Below, piece by piece: positions 12,201 to 24,200 of a stretch of DNA of 64,000 nt (its first letter is position 1; each line of letters opens with the position of its first letter). A program made the position numbers. The DNA lies in assembly GCA_965602015.1 (NCBI GenBank), contig OZ271918.1, positions 3,328,001 to 3,392,000 of the forward strand, given 5' to 3'. Source of the DNA: Salinispira sp. GTDB taxonomy: Bacteria > Spirochaetota > Spirochaetia > DSM-27196 > Salinispiraceae.

Positions 12201-15200
12201 TTTTGGAATGAGCATGACGATGTCATCGATCTTTTTGATAAATACGTCATCCCCAGAAAATCGATATTCCTTAGGAAGTCTGACTGCTTGGCTTCGCCCA
12301 TTTTCAAATAGTTTAGCTGTATCCATTTCGTGCCCCTAGAAAATAATATATATTCAAGTATATATCTACCGTCATAATCAATCAATGATTTGAGATCGAT
12401 CACAAATCAGGAACAAGAATGGTGTCCAAATTAGTTCGCAATTTCATGTAGGAGCCAGCTTCCTCCAGCGGGTTAAGCGGCTATTTTCGGGATGAGATCT
12501 CGTTGCTCATCCAGTATTTCCTTTTTAATATAGGCCTTGCCGGCTGTCCAGTCTTCCGTGTATTCAATCAGGAAACAGGTCACCAATCTCAGGTAAGAAT
12601 CCTGAGATGGGAAAATCCCGACGACTTTCGACCGCCGACGGATCTCCCGGTTCAGTCTTTCCAGCATGTTTGTCGAAGCGACCTTCCGATGATCGAGCTT
12701 TGGAAATTCATAGAACTGGAGTGAGTCTTCAAGTCCGTTATCCAGGATTTCCACCGCCTCAGGGAATTGCGATTCCAGATCATCCATCACCTGTTTGGCA
12801 TATTCCCGTGCGGTACCGGCATCCGGTTGAAGCCAGATATGTTTGATACGGGCGGCAACATGCTCTTTGTGTTTGGCTCTCACTTTTGCCAACACGTTCC
12901 GCATGAAATGTACTTTGCAGCGTTGCCAGCTGGAACCAAGGAATTCTTTCTGGATAGCATTCTTCAATCCCAGATGCGCATCTGAGACCACAAGCCACAC
13001 GGACCGAAGGCCACGCTCCTTCAACCTCTGGATCAGGAACCGGTAATTGTCTTCATTTTCAGCATCCATGGGCTCTATTGCCAGGATTTCCCGTTCTCCA
13101 GCCCTGTTGAGGCCGCACACGACCATAACCGCATGATTGTAGACTCTCCCGTCATCCCGGATCTTTTCATACAGGGCGTCTATCCAGATTACTGGGTACT
13201 CCGCTTCAAGGGGGCGATTGCGAAATGTATCAACCTGTTCATCAAGACCTTTGTTGATTTCTGAAACCTGGCTTGCGGAAATATTCTCGATTCCCAGCTG
13301 TTTTGCCAGACGATCAATCTTCCGGGTTGAAACGCCGTTAATGAATGCTTCCTGGACAACCTGAAGAAGCGCCTGCTCAGACCGGCGCTTCTCGGTGACA
13401 AAGAAGGGGATATACCCTCCCTTTCGGAGCTTTGGAACCACCAGATACATGGTACCTAATCGGGTATCAAAACGGCGAACCCGTGTTCCGGAAAAGTGAG
13501 TAGCCCGGTTGTGGGAGTGCTGACCTTTGGGGGCACCGACCTTGAATTCGACTTCGATTTTCATAAGCTGCTCTGTTGTCCATTTGAGCATCTCAAACAA
13601 GGGATCGGATTCACCGGTGAATTGGGATAGCAGATTCTTGAAATCTGCGGTAGAGTTTTTTGGGGCCATGATTACTTACTCCTTCTGGTTGTGTATCGCT
13701 ACTTAACCTTCGGAGAGAATTGTGGCTCCTTTTACTTTTCTAAATTGCGAACATTATTGGACGTGATCTGATTTTCAGCTACTCCTTTTTTCTGTTGCCG
13801 AAGAAATAGTAATGATGAACAACTTGAACAATACTATATCCGTATCTCCTTTCCAATTGATAGAATGGTGATAAGTATTAGGAGGATGTAACCAATTGCG
13901 ACTCCATAGAATCTATAATCTATTTTAGATTTTTTTTTGATTTTGCTTATGAAATACGGTATCACAACGAAAGTCCCTAGTAGAAAGGGTACTAATATCA
14001 CGGGAAGACCCATGTTCTCAAATAACACAAATATTGGATCTAATATCCGCCGAAATAAATCTACTTTGGTATTCAAATATACTCCTAATTATCAGGTAGA
14101 GTTTCACCAACAGTAAAGACAGAAACCCCAATGGAAGCCTCGGCAATTAGTACAGCTCTTGCACTATTTGTAGCAATAAATCGACCATTCGCCGAATTTA
14201 TAAATCTCTGAGCGCCTTGGTTAAATGCAGGTGCAGGGAGAATAAACCCAAGTACACCAGAAAAAGCTGATAGACCAGCACTTACATAATCACCCTCCAC
14301 GACATAGGCAACGCTTGCAAGCAAATCTAGTCCTGCAGATATTCCAAAAAGTATCGGTGCGGCGGCTGGTAAAGAAAAGACTGCAACCATCCCACCGGCA
14401 GTAAATGCTAAAGAAGCATTCGAAACAATGTCAGCAAATTCACCTACACCATCCAGACTATCGCTAGAAGGATCGTTATTCTGACTGTCAATCAAACCCG
14501 ATAGATCATATCCTGCAGCTTCATAATCCTGGATTCCTCGGAGCAGCTCTTTTGCTAAATCCTCTAACTCTTGCTTGTAGGCAAGAAATTCATCCAGCGT
14601 CATGCCGCTGGTATCTTGTTGTGAGAGTTTAACGAGTTTTTCTGACTGTTGGGTTATTGATTCCTGGGCAGAAATACCAGTGGAGACATGATTGATCTGT
14701 TCGGTTATTTCCTCATAGCTGGCAACCTCTGTTGTTGTTTCTTCTACGTTTCCATAATTCTCATTTTCAGGGGTTTTTGTATGGTAATCCCCGGCATCGA
14801 AGATCGTTGTACCCCAGCTCACTTCATTCAAACCGGTTGGATCGAAGTATTTGAGGGGATTGCTCGCTGCATACCGATACCAGTTCGAACCGAACCGTGC
14901 AGGATCCTCGCTTATAAACCTACCCGTCCCCGGGTCATACCACCGAGTATTGAAATAATACAGCCCGGTATCTTCATCCAGGTCCTTTCCGGTGTACATG
15001 AGGTTTTCTGTGTCAGCCATGGGTCCTAATTCTGATACCGAGTCGCCGAAGGGGGTGGTTTCTGCTGAGAAGACTTCGTTGCCGTCTTCGTCTGTCATCA
15101 GCACGGTGCTTCCCAGGTGGTCTGTGCCGTAGAAGTAGGTCTTTTCCGTGTTGGTGCTGTGGTCTACCACCCGTTTGGCAATGTGGCGGAGGTTTCTGAA

Positions 15201-21200: not shown

Positions 21201-24200
21201 AATCCCCGGCATCGAATATGCTCGTGCCCCAGCTCACTTCATTCAAACCGGTCGGATCGAAGTATTTGAGGGGATTGCTCGCTGCATACCGGTACCAGTT
21301 CGATCCGAACCTCGCCGGATCCTCGCTTATAAACCTCCCGGTCCCCGGGTCATACCACCGAGCATTGAAATAGTACAACCCGGTATCTTCATCCAGGTCC
21401 TTGCCGGTGTACATGAGGTTTTCTGTGTCGGTCATGGGTCCTGATTCGGAGACCGAGTCGCCGAAGGGGGTGGTTTCTCCGGAGAAGACTTCGTTGCCAA
21501 AGCTGTCTGTCATCAGGACGGTGCTTCCCAGGTGGTCTGTGCCGTAGAAGTAGATCTGGGCTACATTGGTTTGCTTGTCCACTACCCGTTTGGCGATGTG
21601 GCGGAGATTTCTGAAGATGTAGTATTCGCTTCTTTGGTCTGTGTGCCGTTCGATTCTGTTGCCCTTTTGGTCGTAGACGTAATGGGTGATTTGGCCATGT
21701 CGGTTTTTCTCCCATATCCTCAGGTTATTCACATCATAGCCGTATTCTTTTATCACGCCCAGATTGCCCTCTTCATCGAGGTCTTCGACGTTTTCCAGGC
21801 GGTTTAACAGGTCCCAGCTGTAGTGGCGGTAGGTTCCTGTCCGGTTGATGGTGATTTTAGTGCCGGTGATTGTGGCGCTGTCTCCCCGTTTGATGAGGTT
21901 TCCCTCGGAGGTGTTTAGCGGTCCATTGGAAACTCTTCACAGTGAACGCATTCGTAGTTTTTGTCCTGGGGGTTTTGGATCATAACCTGGCCGCAGCGAG
22001 GGCAGAGGGGTTCGGGTTCGGCTGTGAGGTTGTGGTTCACTGTGATCCGGCCGTCGAAGACGAAGCAGCGGCCATTCCAGCTACTTTTTTCCTTTGGAAT
22101 GGTCTCGAGGTATTTGAGTATTCCCCCGTGAAGGTGGTAGACGTTTTCTATTCCCAGGTTTTTCACGTAGGCGGTGGCTTTTTCGCAGCGGATTCCGCCG
22201 GTGCAGAACATGGCGACTTTCTTTGGCTTGGTTTCCTCTATCATGTTCTTTGCGGCTTCGGGGAACTGTCTGAAATTTAGTGTTCGCGGGTCAACCGCGC
22301 GGTCGAAGCTTCCCAGGCGGTACTCGTAGGCATTTCTCGTGTCGATGACCAATACTTCAGGATCGGATATGAGTTCATCCCATTGTTCGGCCTCCACGTA
22401 GGTGCCTGAATTTGCCGCCGCATCGATTCCCTCGACGCCCATGGTGACGATTTCCTTCTTAATCCGAATTTTCAGCTTCCTGAAGGGTTTGCGGTTCAGA
22501 TTTGCCGAGGAGTACTTTACCTCCAGATCATGAAATCCGTCCCTGCTGCGGAGGGCGGCGATAAATGAGTCTATATTCTCCCTGCTGCCTGCAATGGTGG
22601 AATTTATTCCTTCGCCGGCGAGCAGAATGATCCCGATGAGGTTTAGATCATCTCCGAGGCGTTGAAGTTCGGCTTTTAGCTGTTCCGGGTTTGTGATTGG
22701 CGTGAATTTATAATATGTGGCGAAGGCGTATTGGACGCGCTTATTGCCGATAGTTTTTGTCATATACGCTGTATAGCATATCCTCCGGGAAATGAGAATA
22801 TTTAATGCCGACGGCACGAGTTAGGCGTAAATCGCAATGACACAAGCGGAAGCTTTTATTATACTGTGGCCTCTATGGCCAGGATTATCGTATTTGCAAA
22901 TCAGAAGGGCGGTGTTGGTAAAACCACATCGGCGGCAAACCTCGGAGCATATCTCGCGGAGGAAGGTCAGCGCGTCCTTCTGGTTGATTTTGATCCCCAG
23001 TGTAACCTCAGTTCTTCGGTCGGGGCCGACAAGGACCGCGGCGGTATTTACGAGCTCATTACCAGCAAAGAGGATCCGCAAAAATACATTCAGGATACCT
23101 CGGTGGATCGGCTCAGGATTATTCCCGCGAGCCCCGATCTGTCCGGAGCGACAGTGGAACTGGTGGGAGAACAGAACCGGGAGTATTTTCTTAAAAAGGT
23201 TCTCACCGAACTCAGGGATCAGTTCGACTACATCTTTATCGACTGTCCCCCCAGCCTGGGCATATTAACCCTTAACGGATTGAGCGCCGCCGACCAGGTT
23301 TACATTCCCCTGCAGACCGAGTATTTCGCCCTCGAGGGAATTACCCAGCTGATGCAGAGCATAAAAATGGTGCAGCGTTCAAGCAATCCGAAGCTCAGCA
23401 TCGGGGGCATTATTTTTACCATGTATGATTCCCGAACCCGTCTCGCCCAGGATGTTGTCAAGGAAGTTGTAGGATACTTCGGCGACCTGGTGTTCAAGTC
23501 GATTATTCCCCGCAATGTCCGGCTTTCCGAGGCCCCCTCCCATTCCGTTCCCATAAATCAGTACGATCCGGGCTGTGCCGGCGCGAAGAGCTACAGGGAA
23601 CTGGCCCGGGAGGTAATTCAGCGTGGCTAAAAAAGCCCTCGGCCGAGGCCTGAGTTCCCTGATGCCCGAGACCGTTGCCCAGGCTGAATCCCAGGGGCAG
23701 CAGGTCCTCATGATCGGCCTGGCCGATCTCGAGCCGAATCCCGACCAGCCCAGAAAAGATTTCCAGGCGGATCTGCTTGAAGAACTCGCCGCCTCAATTC
23801 GCGAAAAGGGTGTCATCCAGCCCCTTGTGGCTGAACAGCAGGATTCCGGTAGATATATGATTATCGCCGGGGAGCGCCGGTTCCGGGCTTCGAAGATAGC
23901 AGGTCTCAGCGAGGTTCCCGTGGTCGTCCGGTCCTTCAGCGACGAGGATAAACTGGAAATCGGCCTCATCGAGAACATCCAACGGGAAGACCTCAACGCC
24001 ATTGAGGAGGCCTTGGGTTACCGCAATCTCATGGAGCGCTTTGCGCTTACCCAGGAAGATGTGGCCCGCAAACTGGGAAAGAGCCGTTCTGCGGTGGCCA
24101 ATGCCCTCAGGCTGCTCAAGCTCCCTCCGGAAATTCAGGACGCCATATCGGCTGAGGGCATCTCCGCCGGCCATGCCCGCGCCCTTCTCTCCATAAAGGC

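Follow-up and report, generated by a model that had tools for sequence, protein, structure and literature searches.

The locus described here lies in a window of 64,000 nucleotides, the whole stretch of Salinispira DNA that was analysed, and is one of three in this genome (G000) where truncated rhs genes with variable toxin tips stand beside putative immunity genes. A 67-bp hairpin, unreported by the earlier note on this DNA, occurs in eight copies in the genome, each behind such a unit, and is a homologue of the integron attC site in which C-G or A-T replaces G-C as the first crossover pair and pairing is retained. The explanation preferred here, to which slightly less than an even chance is given, is that attC-derived recombination sites punctuate what are orphan polymorphic-toxin/immunity arrays, and that the integrase IntI could recombine these sites separately from the resident integron. 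A unit would run from the 5'-truncated toxin core through a variable tip, an immunity gene and the hairpin to a reverse-strand passenger slot and a spacer (Table 1).

Table 1. Features of the second rhs locus, numbered along the window
Feature	Position	Strand	Remark
Adenosine deaminase gene, far flank	9487..10560	-	adjoins trhO in both same-genus relatives
Spacer fragment, far end of insertion	10744..10890	-	
hicAB toxin-antitoxin pair	10984..11522	+	
Canonical attC of the genome's integron type, behind vapBC	11520..11635	-	AAC/GTT, spacers 5/5
vapBC-type pair (PIN toxin, MazE-type antitoxin)	11685..12326	-	
IS256/Mutator-family element	12418..13774	-	occupies the expected hairpin position of its unit
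Putative immunity gene, small membrane protein	13834..14076	-	assigned by position only
Rhs tail	14085..15644	-	272-aa core to DPTGL, shared 107-aa linker, hydrophobic tip
Conserved spacer, GxxExxY upstream region	15645..15986	.	strong Shine-Dalgarno for GxxExxY
Weak promoter-like match towards rhs	15917-15890		inside the conserved spacer
GxxExxY protein (TIGR04256, PF13366)	15987..16358	+	D69/E79/K81 intact
18-bp terminator-like stem behind GxxExxY	16367..16409	+	distinct from the attC-like site
attC-like site, first copy	16495..16561	+	R'' 16495-16501, R' 16555-16561; AAG/CTT, two extrahelical bases, spacers 7/6
Putative immunity gene	16599..17102	-	assigned by position only
Rhs tail, NlpC/P60 tip	17111..18631	-	TTG start
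Conserved spacer, second copy	18632..18992	.	
GxxExxY protein, second copy	18993..19364	+	
RelE/ParE-family toxin (TIGR02683) and HI1420-type antidote	19419..20116	+	between GxxExxY and hairpin
attC-like site, second copy	20204..20270	+	AAG/CTT
Putative immunity gene, small membrane protein	20349..20534	-	assigned by position only
Rhs tail cut at codon ~53	20605..21903	-	shared linker, hydrophobic tip
Fixed left end of insertion	21895..21914	.	identical position in all three loci
trhO-like (UPF0176/rhodanese) gene, near flank	21915..22817	-	

The three rhs loci reported earlier are real and represent lineage-specific insertions, the sites of which are empty in two same-genus genomes. Their repeated block does consist of the rhs core, the spacer, GxxExxY and about 200 nt more, in copies 85-96% identical, and all three loci share a left end near rhs codon 53, within 3 nt. 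The count of eight short rhs genes becomes nine 5'-truncated units, seven of which keep the DPxGL motif and a C-terminal tip; the 251-aa unit is cut by an insertion sequence before this motif, and the ninth unit is broken by IS66. TIGR03696 scores above cut-off in all six Rhs tails scanned. That the short frames might be expressed as genes with their own starts is rejected, since they are the tails of longer genes whose homologues in G014 and G005 run on upstream, one copy starts with TTG, and a Shine-Dalgarno-like sequence precedes none of five frames. A full-length rhs is indeed absent from the genome, where 13 longer Rhs frames taken from relatives, four of 1991-2155 aa among them, match the three loci only and a genome-wide search for a YD-rich open reading frame found none, yet G332 and G387 have full-length genes next to units of this sort. 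The proposed NlpC/P60 toxin type stands, while the NADase does not, its match being to the downstream gene at the immunity position, which has a glycan-binding domain of the F5/8 type (NF047619, PF25302); the toxin fragment preceding that gene resembles YkuD/Tlde1-type proteins (Atlas 0.93 and 0.89), which is a lead only. The immunity genes are putative assignments from position, size and low GC.

The hairpin is far more stable than expected (z -7.6; 0 of 200 shuffles) and displays the attC anatomy of an R''-L''-L'-R' palindrome with two extrahelical bases and an unpaired spacer. Homology among the eight copies begins sharply at R', and the hairpin persists whatever gene stands on either side, as the constant element of the units. 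All eight copies bear AAG/CTT rather than the AAC/GTT triplets of integrons, with spacers of 7/6 or 7/5 and C as the first bulge. Homology was tested with a covariance model (R2) whose training set was 12 hairpins, all from toxin loci. It retrieves genuine integron attC sites as dense arrays in all five genomes of genus g27, along with a site adjoining an integrase gene in G076. Another model, R1, was too narrow, finding G000 and G002 only among 99 genomes of the order; a strict exact pattern had no match in the genome-contig collection, and a relaxed AAG/CTT pattern gave two genome and four metagenome matches, none scoring with R1, that were treated as chance. Exact patterns of this kind are unable to match A|TT sites. 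An Rfam search of window positions 10000-23000 returned no match at E<=1, and the promoter scan stayed at chance level (6 found, 6.7 expected).

The toxin-locus set comprises 44 sites from nine genomes, among which kin are not independent. Forty read A|TT or, with one C|TC among them, C|TT, and retain the pairing; by first pair, 25 sites are T-A, 15 G-C, 2 C-G and 2, both in G352, mismatched, so that 42 are complementary although this pair was unscored (shuffle mean 20.6). AAC/GTT is found in only two, both G|TT and in G362, compared to AAC in 37 of 38 integron-type sites, the toxin-locus and integron-type labels having been assigned after the fact. In the genome's own integron and a distant array, all 27 parsed sites are AAC/GTT (27 of 35 merged intervals at a score of at least 10; one at 9, also AAC/GTT; seven unparsed), a result that supersedes an earlier generic attC scan with only three integron sites. 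Spacers are longer than 5/6 in 30 of the 44 toxin-locus sites and canonical in 14, and the first extrahelical base of the bottom strand is C, not G, in 32, with a G bulge in 10. A genome-wide search of five other genomes placed 12 of 14 matches within 2.5 kb of an Rhs core, where the chance fraction is under 1%. The distribution is patchy, with the site in one of 11 genomes in each of two families; in five other Rhs-bearing genomes it is absent from four at E<=0.5 and the fifth has only a canonical site behind vapBC, and G011 has rhs-Rpn-rhs without a convincing hairpin.

An intact IntI is encoded in trans, elsewhere in the genome, and the integrase is likewise above cut-off in G002, G005 and all five genomes of the genome-wide hairpin search. 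On the folded bottom strand, this enzyme would recombine hairpin with hairpin, thereby excising or re-ordering toxin-immunity units and setting their downstream boundary, while the swapped base would keep the hairpin pool separate from the resident integron with its G|TT sites; an array could then gain circles or incoming DNA by homology and so come to hold tandem units. According to Frumerie et al. (PMC2811028), IntI1 needs only first-base identity between partners: a compensated first-pair mutant recombined fully with a like partner and 10^3-10^4-fold less with wild-type, the cost of a one-sided change.

The five tyrosine recombinases are all located outside these loci; intI is about 180 kb away from the nearest of the three, and at none of them do intI and attI stand beside the array as in a complete integron. 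No attI-like partner was identified for the hairpins, nor was a product of crossover at a hairpin found. Insertion of a whole locus by IntI at the hairpin is rejected. All three loci end in rhs core and spacer and not at R'; the G002 array starts inside a hairpin loop, and its R' mismatches are without mirror in the next R''. Sequencing-run contigs (one sample, four runs) span two hairpin-immunity-tip junctions, and six joints read as other paralogous copies or other organisms; therefore no excision is seen in these contigs, which drop rare variants and whose sample may be the source of the assembly. No RNA runs are listed among the matching sequencing runs.

A possible, if rather doubtful, alternative is that the hairpin is a non-recombining attC relic. 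It would have been brought in by toxin-antitoxin or GxxExxY cassettes, locked when its base was swapped and its spacers drifted, and retained between convergent genes for its structure as RNA or DNA, and all shuffling would be RecA-type (in rhs core, spacer and passenger gene) or due to IS activity, as in ordinary orphan Rhs arrays. The site does nearly always lie between convergent genes, its spacers and first bulge have departed from those usual for attC, the locus ends are elsewhere, mosaicism needs no site-specific enzyme, and modules of the orphan rhs-CT/rhsI type and duplication-recombination models are known (PMC3150448). A relic would not, however, require the second extrahelical base that is kept in 40 of the 44 sites or the triplet's AA/TT and the unpaired spacer that persist over four families, features unneeded for plain stability, and the crossover pair has been struck by two different compensatory swaps. 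Nor is the hairpin called as an intrinsic terminator; GxxExxY has a separate stem, and the hairpin is rejected as its terminator.

Homologous recombination in the conserved blocks does exchange DNA between units, and the earlier view of the repeated block as a multiplied, recombining unit is borne out by mosaic copies (764 of 1431 site pairs incompatible; near 0.39 versus far 0.55, p=0.003), with the signal distributed along the whole unit, the interior of GxxExxY included. In a comparison with transposons, the left end is fixed and the right ends are variable; by eye, no terminal repeats or target duplication were seen at the loci, relatives being too distant for a DNA-level empty-site alignment, and within the genome neither flank has an informative second copy. 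It is very improbable that the arrays are the debris of one decayed, IS-scattered rhs locus or partly an assembly artefact. Elements of IS66, IS21, IS256 and the IS481 family and one further IS do occur in the loci, and five of seven tips have one linker in common, but the ISs interrupt units instead of bounding loci, tips and immunity genes differ between units, pN/pS is 0.21 in the core, and the architecture recurs in other families, whereby such an origin is largely refuted.

As to GxxExxY, six of the seven copies reported are intact (87.6-98.4% nucleotide identity) and one is split by an IS481-family element (Tn552-like in the earlier note), while the claim that these are all the copies in the genome overlooks an eighth at C1:1270120-1270490, frameshifted and 50-58% identical. 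The protein matches its family over the full length and above cut-off, bears the GxxExxY motif and the D..ExK residues, and is under purifying selection (pN/pS 0.06). An extended form of the model first proposed holds that this nuclease acts like Cas4 or Hjc in cutting the hairpin or the fixed left end, or DNA near either, starts duplication or resolves a junction, and so drives the spread of units. Although considered improbable, such a role would fit the presence of all seven close copies within arrays, the PD-(D/E)xK residues D69, E79 and K81, which are conserved in 63 homologues, a confident structure model that aligns best with Cas4 SSO0001, lambda exonuclease and Hjc resolvases (TM about 0.5), and the common left end, which other models leave unexplained. 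Moreover, the rhs-GxxExxY association, thought to be private to this genome (0 of 4 relatives), is not, since the rhs-immunity-hairpin-GxxExxY layout recurs in G362, G287, G352 and G332, in other families, and as a remnant in G002, and GxxExxY adjoins a hairpin in G384; Rpn, which can share its slot, was first described as promoting RecA-independent recombination (PMC5350276).

That GxxExxY makes the break is nonetheless unsupported. It adjoins only 15 of 44 hairpins, nine of these from genomes chosen by GxxExxY search, and is thus no obligate part of every mobile unit; G003 and G005 have rhs-hairpin units and no GxxExxY match; in other genomes, an rhs core is missing within 1.5 kb of 26 of 29 GxxExxY loci; and the recombination signal is spread along the unit. 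Rpn, HicA, HigBA-like, BrnT, ParE or RelE modules fill the same position in other units, and all four Rpn genes of G002 lie in its toxin array in this position; toxin-antitoxin modules, Rpn and GxxExxY are interchangeable occupants of the slot. In general Rpn is not linked to rhs, as an rhs core lies within 1.5 kb of only two of 30 Rpn loci of the order (six-sequence profile). GxxExxY is probably a passenger rather than the driver, and probably a selected one, a toxin-antitoxin-like or defence nuclease. Searches for it in viral contigs and, by sequence, in the PDB found none, and the literature covered, mostly outside subscription papers, holds passing mentions at most.

The arrays are closest to orphan rhs-CT/rhsI modules, which (Poole et al. 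2011, PMC3150448; Starsta et al. 2020, PMC7043789) also feature a 5'-truncated core, DPxGL, a variable tip, a small downstream gene, tandem arrays and exchange via the conserved core. Here, in contrast, there is no full-length rhs, the three insertions are dispersed and have a fixed left end in common, units end with an attC-like site and a passenger gene on the reverse strand, and a second exchange point follows the shared 107-aa linker. Clusters of attC sites without a nearby integrase are termed CALINs. Integron attC sites and CALINs have in common with the hairpins described here the R''/L''/L'/R' boxes, two extrahelical bases 7 nt apart, the unpaired central spacer, a variable terminal stem, direct orientation in arrays, toxin-antitoxin cargo and IntI in trans; the present sites differ in having C or A, not G, as first crossover base, spacers mostly 1-2 nt longer and mostly C as first bottom-strand bulge, and in bounding multi-gene units of 2.5-5 kb, the main genes of which often oppose the site. 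All integrons then known had GTT according to Frumerie et al. (PMC2811028), whose engineered first-base attC/attI mutants resemble these sites in their compensated first-pair change, although that work paired attC with attI1 under IntI1 and the sites here are natural and tied to toxin loci. Rpn/YhgA nucleases, which share the slot with GxxExxY in G002 and, judging by sequence similarity, in G011, belong to the same PD-(D/E)xK superfamily and were likewise read earlier as recombination enzymes, being toxin-antitoxin/anti-phage systems in the later account (PMC5350276; 10.1101/2023.05.02.539157); GxxExxY, of 123 aa, lacks their variable C-terminal tail, a possible internal antitoxin. A literature search by title, with most subscription papers and supplements beyond its scope, found nothing on attC-like sites at toxin loci.

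Since the genome lacks a full-length rhs, the arrays would act as an immunity bank and a store of spare tips. A broader proposal, tentative and rather unlikely as a whole, is that Spirochaetia possess a second integron channel for polymorphic toxins, in which A- or C-swapped attC-derived sites are recombined by the chromosomal IntI among themselves only, so that toxin-immunity units and toxin-antitoxin stabilisers may be captured, excised and re-ordered without mixing with resident cassettes, and the hairpin or a junction may be processed by GxxExxY as a minimal nuclease of the Cas4/Hjc kind. For the C-terminal part of an Rhs or other polymorphic toxin to be displaced, a second crossover is required downstream of the immunity gene; its source is, to our knowledge, mostly unknown, and the hairpins offer a concrete candidate. 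The shared slot likewise provides a first hypothesis for the uncharacterised GxxExxY family, that of a toxin-antitoxin-like or defence passenger comparable to Rpn. If true, the hairpins would be natural exceptions, of integron type, to the GTT rule, of exactly the kind that yields an isolated recombination pool in IntI1 experiments, and they would bear on the conservation of GTT, on the sites that attC scans miss, and on orthogonal sites for DNA engineering.

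The complete 3.87-Mb chromosome of this spirochaete carries rhs sequences at three loci, where the repeated block described in the earlier note (rhs core, spacer, GxxExxY gene and about 200 nt) is seen by both tblastn and blastn. The units number nine rather than eight, and the DPxGL motif with its tip, ascribed to all of them, is kept in seven; one of the damaged units is cut before DPxGL by an insertion sequence, presumably of IS3 type judging from its ORF, and the other is broken by IS66. Since five of the seven tips have a linker of 105-107 aa in common and diverge beyond it, there are two exchange points. 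An NlpC/P60 tip is present on one unit as reported, but the supposed NADase toxin is a match to a glycan-binding domain in a gene at the immunity position; the toxin fragment in front of that gene is similar to YkuD/Tlde1 proteins, which is a lead only. The genome indeed contains no full-length rhs, as 13 longer Rhs frames from relatives match the three loci only and no YD-rich ORF was found. The short rhs frames are tails, not the self-expressed genes once considered, with homologues in two other genomes (G014 and G005) extending further upstream. Their annotated start aligns to an internal Gly of the homologues and is TTG in one copy; a Shine-Dalgarno-like sequence precedes none of the five tails checked, unlike GxxExxY and three immunity genes looked at in the same way, all of which have one.

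The array in the window lies about 10 kb from dnaA, flanked by trhO and an adenosine deaminase gene (add). In both same-genus genomes, the flanks of each locus (purD and a methyltransferase gene; trhO and add; metF and the next gene) are adjacent or nearly so, and all three loci are therefore lineage-specific insertions. The common left end noted earlier, at rhs codon ~53, holds for all three, with a 15-nt junction common to two loci and the third within 3 nt, while the right ends fall at differing positions within the spacer. The units have exchanged sequence with one another by homology: 764 of 1431 site pairs in the core are incompatible and clustered (p=0.003), and in the GxxExxY gene 244 of 741 are incompatible.

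Missing from the earlier description of the unit, otherwise accurate for the block, is a 67-bp imperfect palindrome at which homology sharply restarts; it follows eight of the nine units, as a rule directly 3' of the immunity gene; the ninth bears IS256 in its place, and strong copies in the genome number exactly eight. The palindrome folds (z -7.6) into a hairpin that has two bulges of one base each, separated by 7 nt, and an internal spacer that stays unpaired. This is the anatomy of attC, the boxes of which are named R'', L'', L' and R'. A terminator was considered and rejected, there being no terminator call and GxxExxY having a separate stem of its own. A covariance model (R1) trained on 13 sites, from this genome and a second, G002, added no other genome among 99; in 72 fetched loci it recovered four more sites, all within rhs loci of the family, plus two weak ones in G005. 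Another (R2), trained on 12 toxin-locus sites and zero integron sites, matches canonical attC elsewhere in the order and phylum (12 sites viewed, one adjoining an integrase gene), with dense attC arrays in five genomes of one genus, g27 (25 of the 80 matches outside the present genome viewed). Because a toxin-only model retrieves canonical attC, the hairpin is almost certainly an attC homologue; its sites fail two defining attC features and are therefore classed as attC-derived.

The site extends to an unrelated toxin core in G002, where an array with M23 tips has it after the immunity genes and the following slot holds Rpn, HicA or what is left of a GxxExxY gene together with the spacer seen here; all four Rpn genes of that genome lie in this slot on the reverse strand, and HicA on the toxin strand. 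Nor is the association of GxxExxY with rhs private to the present genome, as had been thought, since wider stretches reveal the full layout in G362, G287, G352 and G332, adjoining long rhs frames as well in the last. ORFs that may encode group II intron reverse transcriptases lie near several rhs-hairpin loci of G332 (L213, L217, L218, L227). G387 has the site behind a long rhs frame, with toxin-antitoxin genes between the site and GxxExxY. Among 29 other genomes of the class, an rhs core lies within 1.5 kb of the best GxxExxY locus in three, the same three that give the best R2 matches. A whole-genome search of these five genomes (G362, G287, G352, G332, G387; four from one genus) gave 14 matches, in four of them; by coordinate comparison, 12 are no more than 2.5 kb away from an Rhs core, where less than 1% of sequence would fall by chance. 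The search missed both G362 sites and two of the three G287 sites, and its sensitivity is thus limited. In further searches, G298 proved to have two AAG/CTT sites, each after an immunity-like gene, and G384 one AAC/GTC site adjoining GxxExxY; site searches found none in G011, G014, G006 and G017, one canonical site only in G039, and none in 10 of 11 genomes in either of two families. In G011, of another family, one locus (L113, contig C39) reads rhs tail, immunity gene, reverse Rpn-like gene, rhs tail, immunity gene, with no convincing hairpin, and several contigs of the 3-Mb genome G006 hold 28 scored Rpn-family matches out of 161 candidates.

Positions of individual features (C1 without a genome label, contig of the present genome; L, fetched loci)
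Feature	Position	Details
IntI	C1:1742714-1743973	TIGR02249, 380 bits (cut-off 265)
Complete integron	C1:1714000-1744000	~18 attC sites, many insertion sequences
Second attC array	C1:3439000-3458000	1.7 Mb from integron; identical cassettes and piece of intI upstream region in common
hicAB	window 10984-12326	Range includes vapBC; hicAB converges on the canonical attC behind it
Four tRNA genes	window 25384-25866	Three Ser, one Arg
Longer rhs unit	C1:1925699-1926319 (L001:5699-6319)	~157 more upstream Rhs codons, weak F5/8 match; their start also at right end of locus 3
GxxExxY pseudogene	C1:1270120-1270490 (L003)	Broken, frameshifted
Half hairpin	G002:C1:1016328-1016377 (L062)	Opens M23-toxin array; joined at loop, overlapping flanking gene's end
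Back-to-back attC-like pair	L117:5708-5969	One site closes toxin-antitoxin gene, the other immunity gene
Back-to-back attC-like pair	G005:C48:112452-112719	One site closes toxin-antitoxin gene

The chromosome also encodes an integron, whose IntI is available in trans; one cassette array adjoins this gene and another lies at 3.44-3.46 Mb. From 35 similar intervals 27 attC were parsed, all with AAC/GTT and 5/5 spacers; the rhs-locus sites have inner-box letters in common with these, and display AAG/CTT and 7/6 or 7/5 spacers instead. One canonical AAC/GTT attC lies inside the window, behind vapBC, a true integron cassette having landed within the toxin locus. Across nine genomes, 44 toxin-locus sites comprise 25 AAT/ATT, 14 AAG/CTT, one AAG/CTC, two AAC/GTT and two AAC/ATT, toxin-locus and integron-type labels being set from context after the sites had been seen, and several of the toxin-locus sites bordering toxin-antitoxin genes at contig ends with rhs not in view. 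With the first pair given no score in parsing, it is complementary in 42 of the 44 (shuffle mean 20.6; reached by 0 of 10,000 shuffles); the four genomes used for training account for 23 of the sites, and copies that share a genome are non-independent. The count omits two G382 matches, an AAC/GTT and an AAT/ATT, whose context is unclear, as well as two partial matches, those G002 copies that are halved or degenerate, and four sites from a later search. AAC is found in 37 of 38 integron-type sites, and an rhs core at none of 37 canonical-site loci tested. According to the available text of Frumerie et al. (PMC2811028), IntI1 requires only an identical first base in both partners, a one-sided change causing a 10^3-10^4-fold loss of recombination, and GTT was found in all integrons then known.

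IntI would recombine hairpin with hairpin, apart from the G|TT pool, and so supply the downstream crossover as well as unit circles; each locus would be such a circle opened between the spacer and rhs codon 53 and later lengthened by homology. On the GxxExxY strand, rhs has a GTT within about a base of all three left junctions, as would be expected of a secondary IntI site; the few common bases past the rhs homology are just as consistent with a single founder from which the loci descend. The hairpin might instead be an inert attC relic, a possible if rather doubtful reading with which the lack of any locus junction at R', the spacers longer than in attC, the altered first bulge and the failure to identify an attI agree.

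GxxExxY itself matches its family, conserves D69/E79/K81 among 63 homologues and has a pN/pS of 0.06 (six intact copies), a signature of selection that may predate duplication because two allele types recombine. Its structure model (pLDDT 94.7) is closest to Cas4, lambda exonuclease and Hjc (TM ~0.5), and GxxExxY is probably an active nuclease. The nearest material for comparison is a set of JGI contigs (P0007-P0010) whose GxxExxY genes are 85-90% identical. Its copies were said to lie only in the arrays, which holds for all except an eighth, the pseudogene; the gene directly downstream of this, which we take to be cas1, is of note in view of the fold closest to Cas4. GxxExxY neighbours 15 of the 44 sites and Rpn three (three flanks being short), the others adjoining HicA/HicB, Gp49/HigBA-like, BrnT, ParE, RelE or immunity genes. 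In the available text of the respective sources, Rpn was originally described as a promoter of RecA-independent recombination (PMC5350276) and later as an anti-phage toxin-antitoxin system (10.1101/2023.05.02.539157). Since most identified slot-mates are toxin-antitoxin modules, a passenger role is, by analogy, the simpler reading for GxxExxY, and the proposal that this nuclease drives the shuffling is improbable, given that it adjoins only this minority of sites.

Orphan rhs modules are already known, including their recombination (available text of PMC3150448) and expression from internal promoters (available text of PMC7043789). Literature linking attC or integrons to Rhs, polymorphic toxins, CALIN or spirochaetes yielded nothing relevant within a partial coverage that excluded supplements, and the terms integron, attC, recombinase and palindrome are absent from the accessible part of a 2026 preprint on Rhs immunity acquisition (10.64898/2026.07.13.738213). 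The arrays join two known kinds, orphan rhs modules and attC sites, and the attC-derived sites may work like attC. The best explanation of the whole, advanced with slightly less than even confidence, is one of orphan toxin/immunity arrays whose attC-derived sites would be recombined by IntI apart from the resident integron.
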